From NCBI GenBank assembly GCA_963759405.1, contig CAVWZA010000016.1, positions 351,850 to 415,849 on the forward strand: DNA of 64,000 nt. The letters run 5' to 3'. The position numbers were made by a program, and so were the translations under genes. Source of the DNA: an uncultured Chloroflexia bacterium (GTDB lineage Bacteria; Chloroflexota; Limnocylindria; QHBO01). Below, one piece after another: positions 21,805 through 44,527 of this stretch; positions within the stretch are counted from its first letter, which is position 1; every line of letters starts with the position of its first letter. A model generated the notes under the pieces. It had not been told where the DNA came from and made no database searches. It worked only from the letters and a program-made list of their open reading frames with translations.

Positions 21805-23151
21805 TTGACGAACAGAGCGCCCCTCCCTAGCATCGAGCGGGTGAACTCACGTCGACCGCTGCGGGCGGGCGTGCCCGACCACGAGGGCGCCATCGCCGGC
21901 GCGGCGTACACCCGCCATCGGCGGATCCATCGGTCCCGAAGCCATCCCCGGCCGCGGATCCTCCAGCTGCTGGCGACCGGCGGCAACGGCGGCGCCCAGG
22001 AGAGCTACACCGGTCTCCTGCTGCGCCTCGACCGCAGCCGATACGACGTGCGCGCCCTGTCTCTCTCGGCCGGCTCCGCTGTCCAACGCCTCAGGGGGCT
22101 CGGCCTCTCCGTGGATGTCCTGGACGAGAGCGACGACGCGCTGGCCGTGCGAGAGCTTGCCGGCTGGCTGCGCCACAACGAGATCGACCTCGTCCACGCT
22201 CACATGTTCCGCGCCGAGGTGATCGGGACTCGCGCGGCCATCGCCGCCGGCACGCCGGTGATCATGGCCACCGTGCACTCCTCGCGCGTCCGCTCGCCCG
22301 AGGACATCGCATTGCTGGCGTCTCTGACGCCGCGGATGGATCGGCTGATCGTTCCGTCGACGAGCATCGAGCACAAGGTGCGTGGCGAGGGACGCGGAGA
22401 CGCCCGCTTCGCGGTCATCCCGAACGGCGTCGATCTCGAGCGGTTCGCGACGCCCGTGCCGGCCTGCCGGATGCGCGACGAGTTCGGCATTCCGCGGCAG
22501 GCGCCGCTGATCGGCGTGGTCGCGCGCCTCGAGCCGGAGAAGGGCCATCGGTTCCTGATCGCGGCGATGCCGATGATCCTGGAGACCGCACCCGACGCCT
22601 GGCTCGCGATCGTCGGCGAGGGCTCGGAAGCCGATGCGCTGCGCGCCCAGGCGGCGTCCCTGGGACGGGCCGTCTCCGAGCGAGTCGTGTTCACCGGGCG
22701 GCGCGACGACGTCTCGGCCCTCACGGCCGACCTCACGGTTGCCGTCCTGCCATCGCTCCGCGAGGCGCAGGGAATCTCGATCCTGGAAGCCATGGCACGG
22801 CGCCGTCCCGTGGTCGCCTCTGCCGTCGGTGGCGTTCCCGAGATCATCACCGACGGGGTCGACGGCCTGCTCGTTCCTCCGGCCGATCCCGCCGCGCTGG
22901 CGAACGCGATCGGCTCGTTGCTGACCGACGCCGCCCGCCGCGAACGGATCGGCGAGGCGGGCTACCGCACGGTTGCCGAGCGGTTCAGCATCGACGCCCA
23001 GGTGAAGCGGATCGAGGTCGTCTACGACGAGGAGCTCGCCCGGGCCGGGGTCGCTGGAGGCGGTACGGCGACCCGAGCCGGTCGGCGGCGCGGCGGCCCT
23101 CCCAGCGGGGAGCCCTGGAGGTTCCCCCGATCTGAGCGCGGCTCTCCGCTA
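21805..23151 (+). CDS. GT4-family glycosyltransferase (3' end uncertain)
   Basis: Motifs present are ILQLLATGGNGGAQ, IGVVARLEPEKGHRFLI, and LPSLREAQGISILEAMARRRPVVASAVGGVPEIITDG (E-x7-E). The listed ORF has no stop and runs on as antisense of the next two genes. Stops are available at 23131-23133 or 23149-23151 in the other frames. Confidence 0.8.
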
Positions 23152-23718
23152 GCTGGACCTCACCCGGTCGCGGTCGACGAGCCGAAGGATCGCCATCAGC
23201 AGCAGATAGATCAGCAGCCAGCCGATGAGCGCGACCATCGCCGCGATGTCGAACACGCTGCCGCCGCCCGGCGTGACCGTGTCCATGGCGAACATCCCGC
23301 GGAAGGGCGCCACGAACGGCTCGGTCACGTCGTAGACGAAGTCGACGATGGAGTTCTGCTGGTTGGCGACCAGGAGCAGAAGCACGATTCGCAACCCGAG
23401 CAGCGTGGCGAGGATGCCGAACAGCAGCGACAGCACGCGGCGCACGTAGTAGAGCGGGCCGGGCCCGGCCGGCTCCGCGTAGCCGCGGGAGGTCGGCGCG
23501 TTGACGTTCACCGGGGCCGCGGCCGGTACCGGATACGGTTGGGCGACCGGTTGCTCGGGCTGGACATACGTCGGCTGCTCGACGACGCGGGTCTCGTTGT
23601 CGACCGGAGTCGACCGGAGCGACCGGAGCGACCGGCTAGCGACCGGAGCGACCGGCTCGACCGGCTCGACCGGCTCGACCGGCTCGACCGGATCTGTGCG
23701 ACGGTCGTCATAAGTCAT
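23149..23718 (-). CDS. YggT-family membrane protein with a repeat-encoded N-terminal extension
   Basis: The C-terminal half, LRIVLLLLVANQQNSIVDFVYDVTEPFVAPFRG...VFDIAAMVALIGWLLIYLL, fits the YggT pattern. The N-terminus is (PVE)4-PVA-PVA-S(RSL)2, encoded by a 9-bp tandem repeat. Confidence 0.65.
   Translation of the reverse strand: MTYDDRRTDPVEPVEPVEPVEPVAPVASRSLRSLRSTPVDNETRVVEQPTYVQPEQPVAQPYPVPAAAPVNVNAPTSRGYAEPAGPGPLYYVRRVLSLLFGILATLLGLRIVLLLLVANQQNSIVDFVYDVTEPFVAPFRGMFAMDTVTPGGGSVFDIAAMVALIGWLLIYLLLMAILRLVDRDRVRSS
23601..23692. repeat. Tandem 9-bp repeat CGACCGG(AG/CT), about 10 units, inside the YggT-like CDS
   Basis: Read directly from the sequence: cgaccggag t cgaccggag cgaccggag cgaccggct ag cgaccggag, then cgaccggct x5 and a final degenerate cgaccggat. 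Confidence 0.9.
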
Positions 23719-23780
23719 GTTCGCGTTCTCCTATATGGAGGTGAGCGTTCGGGACCTGAGGTGCACGCCCTGTGCCAAGG

Positions 23781-24473
23781 CTACTCCACGGGATGGCCGT
23801 GCTTGCCGATCAGCGGCACGAAGACGACCGGCTCGAGCTCCCGGGTGCGCAACGTATCTCCATCCCGCACCACGAGCGTCAGGAACTGGTGCTCGCGGTT
23901 GCCGACCGGCATCACCAGCCGGCCGCCGGACCGATCGAGCTGCTCAAGCAGTGGCCCGGGCACCGATGGACCGCCGGCCGTCACCAGGATCGACCGATAC
24001 GGCGCGCTCTCGGCCCAGCCCTGCGTCCCGTCGCCCACCACGACCTTCACCCGATCGCCGTACCCGGCCTCCTGCAGACCCTGTCGTGCGGTCGTCGCCA
24101 GGGCCTCGTGGCGCTCGATCGTCGTCACGTCGGCGCCGAGCTCGGCCAGCACCGCGGCCTGGTAGCCCGACCCGGTTCCGACCTCCAGGACGTTCGCCCC
24201 GCGCCACCCCTGTGAGGGACGAGCGGCCGCCGTCATCATGGCGACGACATACGGCTGGGAGATCGTCTGCCCCGATCCCACGGGAAGCGCGTGATCGCCG
24301 TACGGCTCATCGCCATCGACGAACCTGTGGCGCTCGACGGTCGCGAACGCGCGCAGGAGCTCGGGATCGCGGATGCCGCGAGCCTCGAGCTGCTCTGCCA
24401 CCATCCGCGCCCGATCGAGGGCGGGATCGTCGCCCGAGCTGCGCGCCGGCCGCGGGAGGCGCGGCCAGCGCAT
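23781..24473 (-). CDS. pcm: Protein-L-isoaspartate O-methyltransferase
   Basis: Motifs present are GQTISQPYVVAMM, VLEVGTGSGYQAAVLAELG and GGRLVMPVG. Confidence 0.9.
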   Translation of the reverse strand: MRWPRLPRPARSSGDDPALDRARMVAEQLEARGIRDPELLRAFATVERHRFVDGDEPYGDHALPVGSGQTISQPYVVAMMTAAARPSQGWRGANVLEVGTGSGYQAAVLAELGADVTTIERHEALATTARQGLQEAGYGDRVKVVVGDGTQGWAESAPYRSILVTAGGPSVPGPLLEQLDRSGGRLVMPVGNREHQFLTLVVRDGDTLRTRELEPVVFVPLIGKHGHPVE

Positions 24474-24926: not shown

Positions 24927-25642
24927 TCAAGCGGCCGCGTGAGGGGAACGTTCTGCGCCGGAGTGCCTCATGGATCGGCAACGGTCGTTGCGACGGACCC
25001 ATAGCAGGCCGTCAGAACCGAGCGGTCGACCAGCGCGGATCGCCTGCATGATCTGGCGTGAGCCGGCAGGCAGAAGGGACCGGACCAAGCCGATGTGAGG
25101 GGCCAGCGCACTCCGGTTCGAGCGAAGATCCTCAATCGCCAGCACGAGGCGGACTGGTCGTCGATGCTGCCGCGCGAGCCAATCGCCGCTTCGAGCGACA
25201 CCGATCGGTACTGGCCCTGATAGTCACCAATGTGACGAACAATCTCGATCGCGAGAATCTCGTCGGGACCCCAGAACACCTCGTCAATCGCCTGTCCATG
25301 CTCGCCCGCGGTGACCTCGAGGCGGACTTTCCAAGCGCGATGCGCTGTCCTGGCGAGGTGCTCGGCGATCAGCAGCTGGCCTCGATCGCGGAGGGATGTA
25401 CCTCGGCCCGGATAGGCGCGGATGACGAGGTCGAGACCGACCGCATCGCTCAACGAGCAGAGGGTTGCCAGCGTTGCCGCGGCAGACCCCATCTCGACGC
25501 GTTCCAATGTCGACCGCGAAACGCCAGCCCGTCGCGCGGCGCCGCCTGTGCTGAGACCGGCCGCCACTCTGGCAAGGCGCACGTCCCTTCCGAGTGCCTG
25601 GGCTTGATCGCGTGCCCGCTCGCCGGCGCGCCGTCGTTTCAT
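24927..25642 (-). CDS. XRE-family HTH regulator with a nuclease-fold-like C-terminal domain; one apparent frameshift
   Basis: The HTH is LRLARVAAGLSTGGAARRAGVSRSTLERVEMG. It is followed by EHLARTAHRAWKVRLEV..IDEVFWGPDEILAIEIV. The tail LAIEDLRSNRSALAPHIGLVRSLLPAGSRQIMQAIRAGRPL continues in ORF 24927-25145. Confidence 0.6.
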
Positions 25643-25813
25643 CGACCGAGTATCACCAACGGCCGTTATCGCCCAGTTACCCGCCGATTAGTGAGTCATC
25701 CCGGCACGCGAGCCATTGCATATGCGCAGAGCGGCCCGATTCATCGGGCACGCGCGCACCAGGGCAGGCGTTCGCGTGCGTCACGGAATCATTCATGATC
25801 GACGCTGCGCGGC

Positions 25814-26283: not shown

Positions 26284-26287
<4 letters not shown>
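25814..26287 (-). CDS. DUF1905 / YdeI (OmpD-associated) family protein
   Basis: [27 protein letters not shown] matches DUF1905. [41 protein letters not shown] matches the YdeI C-terminus. Confidence 0.75.
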
Positions 26288-27769
<1,482 letters not shown>

Positions 27770-27796: not shown

Positions 27797-27825
27797 AGTA
27801 TGGCACCTGTCCGCATTCCGTACAA
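27797..27825 (-). promoter_or_regulatory. Candidate sigma-70-type promoter of the NtrC-like gene (TTGTAC-17 nt-CATACT)
   Basis: The minus strand reads TTGTAC ggaatgcggacaggtgc CATACT. The -10 ends about 27 nt before the ATG at 27769. The match is weak and this is a sequence-only prediction. Confidence 0.3.
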
Positions 27826-27847
27826 CAGGGGCCGTTTCCTGGGAGGC

Positions 27848-28008
27848 GGTTTGCTCGCTGAGGTACGTATCGGCCACTGAGTTGCTGAAATTGCCCACCG
27901 GTGCACATGTCAGCCAACCAGGGGGCTGCTTGTTGGCTGTTTGTTGCTGCCTGGGGTACGTATCGGCCAATCAGTGGCTGTTAGTTGCGCACCCAGGTAC
28001 GTCAATGG
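27848..28008 (-). repeat. 161-nt conserved non-coding module, copy 1 (inverted relative to copy 2 at 43661-43821)
   Basis: It aligns without gaps to the reverse complement of 43661-43821 (about 137/161 identical by hand count). It contains two copies of GGTACGTATCGGCCAATCAGTGGC (one degenerate) and the shared block GTTGGCTGTTTGTTGCT. Confidence 0.85.
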
Positions 28009-28025
28009 CTCGACCGCCGGAATCT

Positions 28026-28628: not shown

Positions 28629-30020
28629 TCAACGGGCGTTGCGCATGGGTGGCACGGCAATGCCGATGACGCCCGCCGCGGCGCAGATGCCGCCGCTCAG
28701 GATGAGGACCTCGGCCGGTCCGATGATCCCGGCCAGCCAGCCGGAGAGGGCCATCGACGCCGCGATCGAACCGAACACGAGCGCCTGGCGGCTGGAGACC
28801 ACGCGGCCCATCAGCCGCTGCGGGGTCCGCTGCTGGAAGAGGGTCACCGTCGGGATGATGAACAGCATGTTGGTCGCGCCGGTGAAGAAGAAGGCGACGA
28901 TGGCCAGCAGCGGATCGGTCGTCAGTCCGGCAGCCACCAGGGAGAGCCCCATCCCGATGAAGCCGGCGATCACCAGCGGCCCCTTCGGTAGCCGATCGCC
29001 GATGTAGCCGACGGCGATCCCGGCAATCACGCTGCCGACCGCGATGGCGGTCAGGAGCAGCGCGTACATCTGCTCGAAGCTCACGGGCCCACGGTCCACG
29101 ACGTCCCGGGCGTAGAGGAGGCTGACCACGATCTCGGCGCCGACCGCCACCTGGGCCATGGTCGAGAGCAGCGTGTTCGAGAGCAGCACGGGCTCGGCCC
29201 ACAGGAAGGAGAAGCCCTCGCGCATCTCCCGCCACACGTTCCGCAGCGAGAGCCCCTCGCTCGGCGGCGCCAGCTGACGCGGCAGGAGCATCGCCCAGAT
29301 GAGCACCGCCGAGACGACGTAGGTGCCGGCATCCAGCACGAACGCCGCGCCGATGACCGAGCTCAGGGCGGTGACGATCAGGCCAGCCACCGGGAAGCCG
29401 ATCAGGTCCGCCGCCGTCTCCGGCACCGACATCGCCGAGTTGGCCGCCACCAGGTCCTGCTCGTCCACCATGGCCGGCACGACGGCCGTCTTCGCGGGGC
29501 GGAAGAGGAGCGTCACCGTCGCGATGAGGAACGCGGCCAGATAGACCAGGCCGATATGGATCTCGAAGGCGAACGGAACCGTGAGCACCAGCCCGGCTCG
29601 CACCACGTCGCAGGCGATCATCGTGATGCGTCGGTCCCATCGGTCCACGAGCACACCGGCCAGCGGGCCGAGCACCACGCTGGGCACCGCGGTCGCCGCG
29701 AAGGTCAGCCCGACCTCGAGCGCCGTCCCGCGGCCGGCCACCAGCGCCCCCAGCGCGATGACGTGGATCCGATCCCCGAGCATCGAGATGAGCTGGCCGG
29801 TCCACAGCAGCGAGAAGTTGCGGTTGCGGACCAGGCGCAGGTACGGCGACTGCGCCCGCGGGGCCCACTCGCCGGCCGGCAGCGCCGCTTCGGCATCGGC
29901 GGGAATCGAGGAGGCACCGCCATAGGCGACACCGGCCTGGAAGGTCCCCGCCGTGGATTGGCGGATCGGGGACTGGCCCAGGGCCACGGCGCCGCGCGAC
30001 GGAGCGCCGGCCCGGGTCAT
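28629..30020 (-). CDS. MFS transporter (MFS_3/EntS-like)
   Basis: It has 12 TM-type hydrophobic segments. Motifs present are NRNFSLLWTGQLISMLGDRIHVIAL and GPLAGVLVDRWDRR (MFS motif A). A candidate ATG at 30020 sits inside a continuous ORF. Confidence 0.85.
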   Translation of the reverse strand: MTRAGAPSRGAVALGQSPIRQSTAGTFQAGVAYGGASSIPADAEAALPAGEWAPRAQSPYLRLVRNRNFSLLWTGQLISMLGDRIHVIALGALVAGRGTALEVGLTFAATAVPSVVLGPLAGVLVDRWDRRITMIACDVVRAGLVLTVPFAFEIHIGLVYLAAFLIATVTLLFRPAKTAVVPAMVDEQDLVAANSAMSVPETAADLIGFPVAGLIVTALSSVIGAAFVLDAGTYVVSAVLIWAMLLPRQLAPPSEGLSLRNVWREMREGFSFLWAEPVLLSNTLLSTMAQVAVGAEIVVSLLYARDVVDRGPVSFEQMYALLLTAIAVGSVIAGIAVGYIGDRLPKGPLVIAGFIGMGLSLVAAGLTTDPLLAIVAFFFTGATNMLFIIPTVTLFQQRTPQRLMGRVVSSRQALVFGSIAASMALSGWLAGIIGPAEVLILSGGICAAAGVIGIAVPPMRNAR

Positions 30021-30552
30021 CGAGTACACGATCGCCCAGAAGATCCCGAGCGCCAGCAGCACGTCGCCGATGCTCACCACGTCGCGGATGTACGGGATCG
30101 GGATCGGGACGACGTCGCCGAACAGCCCGCCGGCGGCGACGAAGCCTGCGACCGTATCGGTCCGAAGCAGGAAGTGGAACGGGTCGTTGACGATGTCCAG
30201 CTTCGGTGAAGCCGGCCGAGAAGAAGGCGGCCGACCAGATGGGCATCTGCCCGCCGTTGATGAGGACGGCCACCATGTTGGCGCCGATGCCCACCGATGC
30301 GATCTGGAGCCCGGGCACCCGCCAGTTGCCGCACAGCCACACGAAGACGAGCAGGTACGCGCCGACGTAGAACCACCCGGCGGGGAGTGCGTCGGCGAAG
30401 CCGGTCTCCTCGCTCACCAGCACCAGCAGCCGCAGTCCCAACGCCGCCGCCAGCAGCCAGCTCCAGCGCAGCTTCAGCTCGCCCAGCCGCGGGAACGAGC
30501 CCCCCGCGAGCGCGCCGACGATCAGCGCAAGGAGGATCGCGCTAAGAAACAT
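30006..30552 (-). CDS. DUF5317-like membrane protein (one frameshift; the 3' part is in frame with the MFS gene)
   Basis: From the ATG at 30552 the sequence is MFLSAILLALIVGALAGGSFPRLGELKLRWSWLLAAALGLRLLV...NMVAVLINGGQMP. The tail DVVSIGDVLLALGIFWAIVYS is in the frame of ORF 28629-30080. Confidence 0.55.
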
Positions 30553-31965
30553 CGTCCGAGGCCAGGGCGGGCCTCGCGGTCGGCTCCGATGTCGAGCTTT
30601 CCGGCTTGTCGCCGGCGCGGCGGTCCCGGCGCTCAACGTCGGCCGGGTGGGGGATGCGGAGCATGGTCGGCAGCTCGTCCGGCCGATCCGGTGGCCGGTC
30701 GAGGATGGCCCGATCCAGGCCGATGAGGACCGGCACGATCTCCGGATCGAACTGGATGCCGGTGAACTTCTCGAGCTGGTCGACGGCCTGCTCGTGGGTC
30801 AGCGGGATCTTCCGATACGGGCGGGAGCTGGTCATCGCCTCGTAGGCATCGGCGATGGTGAGGATGCGGGAGCCCAGCGGGATGTCGAGCGCCTCCATGC
30901 CGTCCGGGTAGCCGGACCCGTTGAACCATTCGTGATGCGCCTTGATCAGCGGCGCTTCCCGGCTCAGCTGGGAGGCCGGCGCAACGATCTCCGCGCCGAT
31001 GGTCGGATGCTGGTTCATCAGGATCCGCTCGCTCTTGTCGAGCGGCCCTTCCTTGAGCAGGATGTTGTCGCGGATGCCGATCTTGCCGATGTCGTGGAGC
31101 AGCCCCGCCCAGGTCAGGATCTCGATCTCCGACTCCGGCAGGCGCATCACCCGAGCCATGGCCTCGGCGATGTGGCTCACCCGGCTCGAGTGGTTCCGGG
31201 TGTAGTTGTCCCGGGCGTCGACCGCCTTCGAGAGCGCCTCGATCGTCTGCTCGAACAGCTCCCTCGTCTCGACGTACCGTGCGTAGGCGACGCGGGTCGT
31301 CAGCAGCGGGACGGCAAACAGTGCGGTGGCCCACCACCCAACGCCGTTCGGCATCTGGAAGACCTGGGCCATCAGCCACGACAGCGGGACCAAGCCCATC
31401 AGGCTGATGGCGACGCCGCCCAGGTCCTGAGCGAACACTGTCCGCACGGATGAGCCGGTCCTGGCGCTAACCGCGGCTAGTGCGAGCGTCCAGTTGACCA
31501 GCGTAAAAGGCGATGCCCGCGATGAGCGCACCGACGAAGGAGACAACGCTAGGCGCCGCAGAAGCCTCACCGCCGAGCAGATGTCGTGGAAACGTCGAAG
31601 GCCATCCCGGCTGCGACCGCCGAGATGACCACCGAGGAGTGGTTGAACAGGGTTCCGTACCACGGAACCTCTCGCCTCGACTTCCCGCGTGTCAGTCGTT
31701 CCGATCGCCCCGACGATCGCCCCCGCAAGCGGTCCACCCAGAGATGGTCGCGGCTAGCACCGGCGCAACGCCGAACCGTACACGACTGTCCCTCGCGGCA
31801 ACCTCACAGGCATCACGCTCGCAAAGAGCGCGACGACGGTCCAAAAGATGAGACCAGGTACTCCGCCCAGTTCTGGACGCACCGGGAATAGCAGAATAGC
31901 CGCCGCAATTGCGAGAATTGCGGCGGCTAGGGTTGCGAGGACAAGGCGCTTTACGATCGGACCAT
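30542..31965 (-). pseudogene. Membrane-anchored HD-GYP domain phosphodiesterase (c-di-GMP turnover); the N-terminal TM region is frame-disrupted
   Basis: The catalytic part is intact in ORF 30542-31663 (HSSRVSHIAEAMA, GLLHDIGKIGI, HHEWFNGSGYPDG). Upstream TM helices (IVKRLVLATLAAAILAIAAAILLFPV...LIFWTVVALFASVMPVRLP) are in other frames. An ATG at 31965 is preceded by GAGAGGTGAGG. Confidence 0.85.
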
Positions 31966-32007
31966 GACCTCACCTCTCGGTGAGCAGCGGAGTCTAGCAC
32001 GCGCCAG

Positions 32008-32106: not shown

Positions 32107-32422
32107 GCTGTTCCTCATATCAAGGCTGGCTCTACCAGCCCTTGACGACTTGTGTAGACATCAGAAGGTGCCCTCTTCCGATATGGGTCCATAGACAACC
32201 GACACACTCCGTGACGGAACGGTCGGTTGCACTAGCTGCTCCCCGTTGGCCCAAGTGCCCAAGTTCAGCCAACGGATCAATGCTTCCCACGAAGTTGCGA
32301 CTAGTACCTAGGTACCAGGCCACGGGGGTACCATATGGGTAACGTGTGCCAGAAAGTCAAGCGCCAGACATAGTTTGACTCGAACCGAGTCCAATCAGAT
32401 TTGACCTAGCCTTCGAAGCTGA

Positions 32423-43034: not shown

Positions 43035-43697
43035 ATGGATCGCGACCAGCTGCTCAGGCGAGCCATCCTGCTGTCGATTCTGAGCATCGGCCTCAGCGCG
43101 GTGGTGGGAACGGCGGCAGTCGCGGTTGCCATCACGACCGGGAGCCTCTCGCTCCTCGGCTTCGGGGCCGATGCGGTGATCGACTCTGTCGCGTCCGTGG
43201 TGCTCGTCTGGCGCTTTCGAACGGAGGTGCGGGAGCCGCATCGTGCGGATCGGATCGAGCAGATCGCGGAGACCATCATCGGAGGAGTCCTGCTCCTGCT
43301 CGCCGCGTACCTCGCGATCAGCGCGGTGGGTGCGCTCATGACCGGCTCCTATCCGTCGGCGAGCCTGGCGCGAACGATTCTGCTTGGCGTTGGCCTCGTC
43401 ACTCTGCCGCCGCTCGCCATTGCCAAGTACCGCGTGGCGCAGGCGCTCGGGAGCCGCGCACTGCGTGCCGATAGCATCCTGACGGCCGTCGCGGCGGTGC
43501 TCGCGGCCATCGGCATGGCGGCGCTCGCGCTCAGCGCTCTCCTCGATGTCCATTGGGGCGATGCCGTCGGCGCGCTCGTCGTCGCGGCATCGTTGCCCGC
43601 GATGAGGCGTCATCGCCCGGCCGTGCAGCCGTGTGACCCTCGCCCGGATTGCCATACTGCCACCGACGTACCTGGGCGAGCAACTAACGGCCACTGA
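43035..43697 (+). CDS. Cation-efflux (CDF-like) membrane protein, TM domain only; 3' end uncertain
   Basis: From the ATG at 43035 the sequence is LSILSIGLSAVVGTAAVAVAITTGSLSLLGFGADAVIDSVASVVLVWRF ... SRALRADSILTAVAAVLA ... WGDAVGALVVA. The listed frame stops at a TGA inside repeat copy 2. An alternative frame stops near 43640. Confidence 0.7.
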   Translation: MDRDQLLRRAILLSILSIGLSAVVGTAAVAVAITTGSLSLLGFGADAVIDSVASVVLVWRFRTEVREPHRADRIEQIAETIIGGVLLLLAAYLAISAVGALMTGSYPSASLARTILLGVGLVTLPPLAIAKYRVAQALGSRALRADSILTAVAAVLAAIGMAALALSALLDVHWGDAVGALVVAASLPAMRRHRPAVQPCDPRPDCHTATDVPGRATNGH

Positions 43698-43821
43698 TTG
43701 GCCGATACGTACCCCGGCTAGCAACAAACAGCCAACGAGCCGCGCCCTGCCTGGCTGACGCGTGCACCAGCGAGCAAATTCAGCCACTGATTGGCCGATA
43801 CGTACCCGAGCGAGCAAACCA
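43661..43821 (+). repeat. 161-nt conserved non-coding module, copy 2
   Basis: It contains two identical 24-mers GCCACTGATTGGCCGATACGTACC (43690-43713 and 43784-43807) and three CGAGCAA motifs. It is the reverse complement of 27848-28008. Confidence 0.85.
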
Positions 43822-43860
43822 CGGAGACGCCGGGCCGGCAAGCCGGTAGACATTCTCGTG

Positions 43861-43900
43861 TTGACGCGAACGACCGATCGGCGCGTAGAGTCCGACACCG
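43861..43900 (+). promoter_or_regulatory. Candidate promoter TTGACG-19 nt-TAGAGT, with the -10 box 9 nt before the ATG at 43901
   Basis: TTGACG is at 43861-43866 and TAGAGT at 43886-43891. The spacer is 2 nt longer than optimal. Confidence 0.4.
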
Positions 43901-43944
43901 ATGGCGCGCATGAGCGCGCCGACCGCAGCCACCAGGAGGACGAG

Positions 43945-44007
43945 ATGTCAGAGACCGCAGGGACGGTTCTTCGCGCGTCGCGTCTCCGGATGGAGCTCGT
44001 CGGCTAG
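43945..44007 (+). CDS. Candidate 20-codon upstream ORF (MSETAGTVLRASRLRMELVG)
   Basis: AGGAGG at 43934-43939 lies 5 nt before the ATG at 43945. An 8-bp GC hairpin (44042-44061) follows. No homology evidence is available. Confidence 0.25.
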   Translation: MSETAGTVLRASRLRMELVG

Positions 44008-44098
44008 CAGCAGCTGGTTTTCAACCGCCGCTCGCCAGATGGGCCGCCCGCCGGGGCGGCCTTCGTCACACCTGAGGCCGAACGCGACGCGCACACCG

Positions 44099-44527
44099 AT
44101 GCGTCCCTCTCAACCGTTCGACCCAGGAGATCCACCCTTGCGCCAGCACCGTGATCCACGCCGCGTGCGGCATCGGCCGCGCGCAGAACCGAGCTCCTTC
44201 CGTTGCGTCAACTGCCGGCTCGACGTGCTGTCCGACGCCCCGGGCACACAGCACCGCAACCACTGCCCGAGCTGCCTCTGGTCGCGTCACGTCGACGACC
44301 GGCCGGGTGACCGCGCCATGCTCGACGAATGCGGCTCAGGCATGGAACCGATCGCCATCACCGTCCGCGGCAAGGGCGAGTGGGTGCTCATCCACCGCTG
44401 CACCGGCTGCGGCGTGCTCCACGCCAACCGATCGGCGGCCGATGACTCGCCGCTGCTCCTCGTCCGGCTGGCGGTGAAGCCGCTGGCGATGCCGCCCTTC
44501 CCGCTCGACCGGCTCGCACTGGTCTAG
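44099..44527 (+). CDS. RNHCP domain-containing zinc-ribbon protein (the ORF is open from 43901)
   Basis: FRCVNCRLDVLSDAPGTQHRNHCPSCLWSRHVDD ... HRCTGCGVLHANR contains the RNHCP motif and the Cys pairs. The first 66 codons of the long ORF are Arg/Ser/Pro-rich and look non-coding, so the internal ATG at 44099 is preferred. Confidence 0.7.
   Translation: MRPSQPFDPGDPPLRQHRDPRRVRHRPRAEPSSFRCVNCRLDVLSDAPGTQHRNHCPSCLWSRHVDDRPGDRAMLDECGSGMEPIAITVRGKGEWVLIHRCTGCGVLHANRSAADDSPLLLVRLAVKPLAMPPFPLDRLALV

Follow-up and report, generated by a model that had tools for sequence, protein, structure and literature searches.

A 64,000-nt stretch of genomic DNA from an uncultured soil bacterium of Candidatus Limnocylindria (Chloroflexota; GenBank assembly GCA_963759405.1, contig CAVWZA010000016.1, positions 351,850 to 415,849; the whole stretch is referred to here as the window) carries two inverted copies of an array of short DNA units. 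Copy 1 lies upstream of a gene encoding an NtrC-like regulator (locus 1), and copy 2 upstream of an RNHCP gene (locus 2). The array is a real and previously undescribed member of a familiar kind of element: a lineage-restricted, low-copy intergenic DNA array with predicted 24-bp protein-recognition sites. It is a non-coding, DNA-level element, and the whole cassette has been copied to the gap upstream of a sigma70-type promoter at two loci. Comparison with related loci from metagenome-assembled genomes of Candidatus Limnocylindria (Chloroflexota) leads us to a tentative best explanation: the lineage-restricted array, copied as one cassette, would be an accessory protein-binding array, regulatory or architectural.

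The inverted pair was detected by a repeat search of the window and gapless pairwise alignment. Positions 27848-28009 (minus strand) and 43659-43820 (plus strand) are 85% complementary over 162 nt with no gaps, which agrees with the repeated non-coding module of the initial annotation. Four occurrences of the 24-mer GCCACTGATTGGCCGATACGTACC were counted, three of them exact and the fourth with three mismatches, the expectation from 100 shuffles being zero. As previously claimed, each copy holds two 24-mers, and three of the four are identical; their spacing is 93 nt in both copies, or approximately nine helical turns. The module had been delimited at 161 nt; however, the unit that is gained or lost is larger at both loci. 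The features of the two copies are as follows.

27832-28017, minus strand: gain/loss unit at locus 1 (~186 nt), equivalent to 189 nt of L167 without counterpart in L168, with CGG(C) microhomology at its edges
27848-28009, minus strand: core of copy 1, found by repeat search and alignment (nhmmer match 28013-27846, E = 8e-53)
27955-27978, minus strand: distal 24-mer of copy 1, exact GCCACTGATTGGCCGATACGTACC
27911-27939, minus strand: central degenerate unit of copy 1, with inverted repeat CAGCCAAC...GTTGGCTG
27862-27885, minus strand: proximal 24-mer of copy 1, with three mismatches, reading GCAACTCAGTGGCCGATACGTACC; the 14-mer GGCCGATACGTACC is unbroken
43618-43860, plus strand: gain/loss unit at locus 2 (243 nt), present in the window and L197 and replaced by GGGG in L196, with one extra degenerate unit at left
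43659-43820, plus strand: core of copy 2, upstream of the RNHCP leader promoter, found by repeat search and alignment (nhmmer match 43655-43831, E = 2e-54)
43690-43713, plus strand: distal 24-mer of copy 2, exact
43729-43757, plus strand: central degenerate unit of copy 2, CAGCCA...TGGCTG
43783-43806, plus strand: proximal 24-mer of copy 2, exact

The array consists of tandem degenerate units of ~30-50 bp each, four in copy 1 and five in copy 2, with the layout [GCCA-loop-TGGC][GA(TA)CGT(A/G)CACC][N3-8][GAGCAA]. Two units per copy hold the near-invariant 24-bp composite site, and the remaining units are degenerate. The composite site joins a short dyad, GGCCA-N5-TGGCC, to the palindrome TACGTA. 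This dyad had been assigned to every 24-mer; however, only the distal site of copy 2 has it in perfect form, two sites show the partial form GCCA-N5-TGGC(C), and in the proximal site of copy 1 it is broken. The two 24-mers of a copy are identical to each other, but the sequences that flank them agree at only ~60%. The stem of the central unit erodes in other copies through G-T changes only, with no compensatory change. The array matches its own reverse complement weakly because the sub-motifs are themselves palindromic.

The core sequences were compared among loci. Identities were 91.4% between copy 2 orthologues, 80-93% between copy 1 orthologues, and 81-87% between paralogues, so the duplication is older than the split of the two sampled clades. 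These identities fit an old duplication and subsequent vertical descent, with no concerted evolution and no recent transposition. Orthologous loci were located by motif-independent anchors, namely the flanking Ser/Ala-rich protein and CDF (cation-efflux) protein. Among the five copies found in this motif-independent way, 4 of 48 columns were variable in the 24-mers vs. 41 of 115 elsewhere (Fisher p = 2e-4). These values indicate that the 24-mers have been under purifying constraint while the rest of the array drifted.

An exact-pattern scan of 185,579 reference genomes returned one true match, a one-site version of the array at the orthologous NtrC locus of L001, which is a sister genome. A separate metagenome scan returned three contigs: L086, with a full array at the orthologous NtrC locus; L085, with a full array adjoining the panC 3′ end; and L084, with one lone unit where a TPR gene ends. 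The array was found in four genomic contexts (ahead of the NtrC-like gene, ahead of RNHCP, and downstream of panC and of the TPR gene), with a unit number that varied from four in copy 1 and five in copy 2 to the one-site version of L001. It was present in none of 80 RNHCP loci of other species. The NtrC orthologues L088-L090 and L172 had no array and just 14-19 nt from the stop codon to the -35 element. A unit-level profile revealed no further copies in ~650 kb of related DNA, the 22 matches in viral contigs were all chance matches in unrelated contexts, and plasmid and phage BLAST gave no matches. For three proteins encoded in the window, exact look-ups turned up no record. An NtrC-anchored genome scan (at least four orthologues) was also used. 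In summary, copies exist beyond the two of the window, coding potential was lacking, and no match to an insertion sequence (IS), a miniature inverted-repeat transposable element (MITE) or an Rfam family was found, in line with the original proposal of a distinct non-coding module.

Close relatives differed in the presence of the array, as listed below. L169 and L197 are on the same contig of a second genome.

L167: 97.5% NtrC-DNA identity to the window; copy 1 present
L168: 98.3% identical to L167 (NtrC DNA); copy 1 absent
L169: 92.7% NtrC-DNA identity to the window; copy 1 present
L197: same contig as L169, ~17.8 kb off, with the two copies inverted as in the window; copy 2 present
L196: 97.6% identity with the window across 4.6 kb; copy 2 absent

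The empty site of locus 1 in L168 reads GGATCCCG-CC-CTCGGTTGTACGG, and L167 is 189 nt longer, with CGG(C) microhomology at each end of the extra segment. In L196, the locus 2 site is GCGTCATGCC-GGGG-TTGACGCG vs. 243 nt in the window; the check for target-site duplication gave no clear duplication here and only the above microhomology at locus 1. Because L168 and L196 are nested in the array-carrying clade, secondary loss is the simplest account of their empty sites. The entire cassette can drop out almost precisely with no harm. The same gap upstream of NtrC carries unrelated inserts in L171, L170, L173, and L001; that of L171 is ~190 nt long and has two CCGATNTATCG palindromes. A small open reading frame (ORF) lies in this stop-to-promoter gap in L001 (3150-3341) and L173 (1931-2134), and the L001 product is Cys-rich and zinc-ribbon-like; the gap thus appears to be an insertion hot spot.

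A second array family of ~180 nt, with CCGATNTATCGG palindromes ~50 nt apart, was observed in other Limnocylindria lineages at the following positions.

L087: 1771-1946 and 2669-2844
L171: 416-530
L022: 608-670 and 4468
L027: 341-402 and 2428

The two CCGATNTATCGG arrays of L087 flank an XRE-like gene, and the L171 array occupies exactly the site of copy 1 of the window. Degenerate CCGATNTATCGG remnants are found in the window at 25736-25747 and ~24975, on either side of an HTH_31 gene (24968-25642). A homology between the window array and the L087-type arrays through CCGAT-N12-GAGCAA was considered and was not demonstrated, there being only one fitting instance.

Copy 1 sits in the gap that follows the stop codon (28026) of a small, Ser/Ala-rich membrane ORF and precedes the NtrC promoter; the NtrC-like gene encodes Response_reg, Sigma54_activat, and HTH_8 domains. 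Copy 2 follows a cation-efflux (CDF)-like gene and precedes the RNHCP gene. Both copies had been placed immediately upstream of gene starts. They do precede conserved promoter-like elements, listed below, and have the same orientation relative to both promoters, as stated earlier; however, the gene starts require revision. The NtrC-like gene most likely starts at TTG 27736, with ribosome-binding site GGAGG, rather than at ATG 27769, and the gene calls in L167 and L169 agree. The RNHCP gene had been taken to start with the ORF at 43901, immediately after copy 2; judging from the 129-aa gene calls in L196 and L197, its start is most likely TTG 44138, 318 nt away from copy 2 and preceded by a structured leader of ~250 nt. 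The distance from array end to the -35 element is 22 nt at locus 1 and 40 nt at locus 2.

27797-27825, minus strand: sigma70-type promoter of the NtrC-like gene, TTGTAC-17-CATACT, present in every orthologue examined, with or without the array
43861-43891, plus strand: putative promoter of the RNHCP leader, TTGACG-19-TAGAGT; homology to all other RNHCP loci starts here and continues through TAGAGT into a conserved leader
27725-27738, minus strand: GATTGGCCGATTCG, spanning the TTG start of the NtrC-like gene and matching the 24-mer core at 13 of 14 positions (14 of 14 in L171); 1-2 of 500 shuffles were as good

The near-copy GATTGGCCGATTCG may be coincidental, may be a third binding site, or may record where the 24-mer came from. 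A 9-mer, GCAATTTCA, that copy 1 shares with the leader of the NtrC-like gene is confined to the window and was treated as coincidental. The 15.6 kb between the copies contain ordinary chromosomal genes, among them MFS transporter, HD-GYP-like, BTAD/TPR, HPPK, APH, glpX, purH, and J-domain genes; no transposase, recombinase, or integrase gene was found in this interval or adjoining the copies. L196 and L197 retain a mechanosensitive-channel (MS-channel) gene (~1 kb) that the window lacks at ~43602-43605, and in L197 the array is also upstream of this gene, which is divergent, i.e., it lies in a divergent promoter region. The apparent CDF stop codon that falls within the first 24-mer of copy 2 is artefactual: a deletion or frameshift at ~43602-43605 removed the CDF 3′ end together with the MS-channel gene. 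The rule that the array always follows a co-oriented stop codon fails in L197. The NtrC-like gene (26284-27736, minus strand), the MFS gene (28629-30636, minus strand), and the CDF 3′ end (~43600, plus strand) are frameshifted in the window; intact homologues were found in L001, L167, L196, and L007, and the frameshifts are probably long-read assembly indel errors, or else pseudogenes.

Coding function of the array was rejected. Mismatches between the copies were distributed 9/6/7 by phase and showed no 3-nt periodicity, as noted in the initial annotation, and the ORFs that cross the array occupy different frames in different copies. A protein search with the six-frame translation, aimed at spurious ORF calls over other copies, returned nothing. 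A structured RNA gene had also been suggested; the candidates here would be a small RNA gene or a cis-acting element of a 3′ or 5′ untranslated region, transcribed from the GCCACTGATTGGCC strand. Small hairpins are present at GGCCA-CUGAU-UGGCC and in the central unit (CAGCCAAC...GUUGGCUG), where two A-to-G changes in the stem yield G-U pairs on the GCCACTGATTGGCC strand, and copy 1 begins 17 nt past a co-oriented stop codon. However, Rfam 15 gave zero matches at gathering score and none that was meaningful at E-values up to 10, and folding energy was like that of shuffles for both strands of both copies (z = -0.05 to -1.85). The RNAalifold covariation term was +1.6 on five copies, a number that limits power, and no helix was convincingly compensated. 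No internal promoter or terminator was found, and the array lies in a divergent promoter region in L197 and antisense to both neighbours in L085. An RNA function is thus highly improbable and not supported, and the array should not be annotated as an RNA gene.

The main rival to a protein-binding array is a non-autonomous intergenic repeat, selfish or neutral, in the style of REP/BIME, BOX, or MIRU elements and with no role for the flanking genes. Modular small-hairpin units would be spread and lost by transposition or recombination, and the 24-mers would be sites for a trans-acting recombinase or transposase, or structural hairpins. This explanation accommodates the four unrelated genomic contexts, the near-precise presence/absence at both loci among strains 97-98% identical, the variable unit number (one site in L001, an extra left unit in copy 2), and the consistent location in intergenic gaps, where insertion is harmless. 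It is also consistent with the ~180-nt CCGATNTATCGG arrays of other Limnocylindria, one of which occupies the copy 1 site in L171. Copies, however, are very few (a single unit in the entire sister genome, two arrays in each of two genomes), and a small set of regulated targets fits such a number better than a proliferating repeat does. The paralogues are old and none is near-identical, which argues against recent movement. Dead mobile copies should decay evenly, whereas the 24-mers are kept at fixed orthologous loci. Terminal inverted repeats were inconsistent: they were not above shuffles in copies 1 and 2 of the window or in L169, and the left end matched the reverse-complemented right end above shuffles only in L167 and L085, with different pairings. 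MITE-like multiplicity was not seen either, there being two old copies per genome, and no transposase or integrase gene accompanies the copies. REP and REPIN sequences are defined by a GTAG or CGTC tetranucleotide directly at the end of the stem-loop, form mostly head-to-head dimers, and typically belong to families of 20 to thousands of units (PMC3733652). In the 24-mer, the stem GGCCA-CTGAT-TGGCC is followed by GATACGTACC, and on the other strand GGTACGTATC stands ahead of the stem; no GTAG or CGTC adjoins the stem, and the units are head-to-tail, an arrangement rare in REPs (PMC3733652). No RAYT (Y1/HUH) gene was found in the annotated regions of the window. The earlier suggestion of a small repeat element is therefore borne out by the contexts, the presence/absence pattern, and the variable unit number, but not by the copy number or the age of the copies, and we regard it as unlikely, albeit the most serious competitor. 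Integron attC cores (RYYYAAC and GTTRRRY, inverted at the ends) were not found; GCAAC/GCAAAC is direct at both ends, with no 3′ GTTRRRY. The copies might also be the ends of a 16-kb transposon or invertible segment, since they are inverted, contain repeated subterminal sites, have sharp outer ends facing outward in a Tn7- or Mu-like geometry, and are kept ~16-18 kb apart in two genomes. This possibility is effectively refuted, because each copy is gained or lost singly with contiguous flanks (L168, L196). In addition, the interior consists of housekeeping genes (purH, glpX, HPPK, MFS, HD-GYP) without a transposase or recombinase, it is syntenic in the sister genome, which has just one unit, and inversion polymorphism was not seen.

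Two other regulatory explanations were considered. The array might be the upstream activating sequence (UAS) of the adjacent NtrC-like protein, a sigma54 enhancer-binding protein that would autoregulate and also control RNHCP. The neighbouring gene does encode the domains of such a protein, a partial 24-mer match is present at the start codon of the regulator itself, and enhancer-binding proteins typically use two or more dyad sites ~100-200 nt upstream of promoters. However, both downstream promoters are of sigma70 type and conserved irrespective of the array, and matches to the sigma54 -24/-12 pattern (GG-N10-GC; TGGCAC-N5-TTGCW) in the window were at chance level (17 vs. 16.9 expected), with no sigma54 promoter near the array. 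One such match, at 27840-27855, points away from the genes and has no conserved counterpart in L167. Many genomes without the array conserve the regulator, and the array is not known to resemble NtrC-type dyads. This explanation is accordingly very unlikely; nothing points to the neighbouring activator, and the array should not be annotated as its operator. A broader proposal, which we consider rather improbable, groups the array with the unrelated CCGATNTATCGG arrays in a class, so far undescribed, of portable low-copy cassettes upstream of promoters. Each would be ~180 bp long, with four or five tandem units that each contain a short palindrome, and would be inserted and excised almost precisely in the gap between a gene end and the next -35 element. 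They would rewire which operons answer to a lineage-specific DNA-binding protein, and the near-copy GATTGGCCGATTCG over the start codon of NtrC would act as a third operator and make a repression loop possible.

The accessory protein-binding array is favoured by its constrained sites, dyad content, spacing of ~nine helical turns, promoter-proximal position, and low copy number. The 24-mers would be recognition sites of a sequence-specific DNA-binding protein, probably a dimer, which would bind at both strong sites and perhaps also at the weaker units in between. The resulting nucleoprotein complex would lie ahead of the promoter of the NtrC-like regulator and that of the RNHCP operon, and in L197 also ahead of the MS-channel gene, and would modulate transcription as an accessory, strain-variable input. 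The operator array for a dimeric protein that was proposed initially thus stands insofar as the element is DNA-level and promoter-proximal, with constrained 24-mers; it does not stand as a conserved operator, since the array is absent from the 80 RNHCP loci, the NtrC orthologues L088-L090 and L172, L168, and L196.

Several observations weigh against the accessory protein-binding array. The array is dispensable: it is absent from L168, L196, and all more distant orthologous loci. The spacing from the proximal 24-mer to the -35 element varies, being 34-37 nt at locus 1 and 54 vs. 62 nt at locus 2, and this unfixed spacing argues against a phase-dependent activator. The array in L085 is oriented opposite to the nearest gene start, and the insertion-rich gap upstream of NtrC may be simply a permissive hot spot. 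L001 and L084-L086 were recovered via the motif search itself, and the constraint test is partly post hoc because the definition of the 24-mer came from the copies in the window.

Should the 24-mers be binding sites, the array would provide a clear example from nature of a complete cis-regulatory block that was copied between promoters and variably kept or dropped among strains. The host class is globally abundant in soil, uncultured, and without genetics, and the matched strains with and without the array at both loci are ready-made controls. Should the array be no more than a selfish repeat, it would add little to the bacterial intergenic repeats already catalogued.

The RNHCP leader (43892-44137, plus strand) showed no codon periodicity and no Rfam match. 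It contains a conserved upstream ORF of 20 codons, MSETAGTVLRASRLRMELVG, which extends from ATG 43945 to TAG 44007 and has the ribosome-binding site AGGAGG. A long-range helix pairs 43975-43983 with 44082-44090, and two of its pairs show compensatory CG-to-UA changes among 22 Limnocylindria loci. A GC hairpin is located at 44041-44061. Among the 22 loci, 97% of the cells were paired in this structure vs. ~40% in slid controls. The leader is a candidate for a new translation-coupled cis-regulatory leader, and may be more interesting than the array.

Two further features of the window were recorded. A c-di-GMP-II riboswitch at 32212-32294 (minus strand) scored 56 bits vs. a gathering score of 53.5, and precedes both a 102-aa ORF (31692-32000) and an HD_5/HD-GYP-like gene (30542-31663). 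Within a long ORF (21805-24165), a 9-nt tandem repeat (CGACCGGAG / CGACCGGCT) is present at 23611-23693 (plus strand).

Among known systems, the array resembles operator and UAS arrays for dimeric transcription factors, including those borne on repeats, in that its dyad sites are ~nine helical turns apart and just upstream of the -35 element, the sites are kept while the spacers drift, and the targets are few. It differs from them in being strain-variable, absent from most orthologous promoters, and at an unfixed distance from the promoter; moreover, a whole block of 160-240 bp including spacers was copied, whereas operator sites evolve in place. With REP, BIME, and REPIN elements it shares short intergenic stem-loop units, lineage-specific families, and occasional precise loss (PMC3733652, PMC3116915). 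However, the stem of the array is only 5 bp, the tag is absent, the units are head-to-tail, and the copies are old, very few, and kept at fixed orthologous positions. The BOX elements of Streptococcus pneumoniae and MIRU-type units of Mycobacterium occur in tens to hundreds of copies per genome. Like the array, they are modular intergenic arrays of short units near promoters or gene ends, with small hairpins, strain-variable unit number, and no coding capacity; in contrast, the array has one to three copies per genome and no sequence similarity to them, and two of its units hold a strictly conserved 24-bp site. The sopC locus of plasmid F consists of tandem 43-bp units, each with a short inverted repeat. 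The array likewise has direct tandem units of ~40-50 bp with a short inverted repeat in each; however, it is chromosomal, occurs at two promoter-proximal loci with four or five degenerate units, has no partition genes nearby, and shares no sequence similarity with sopC.

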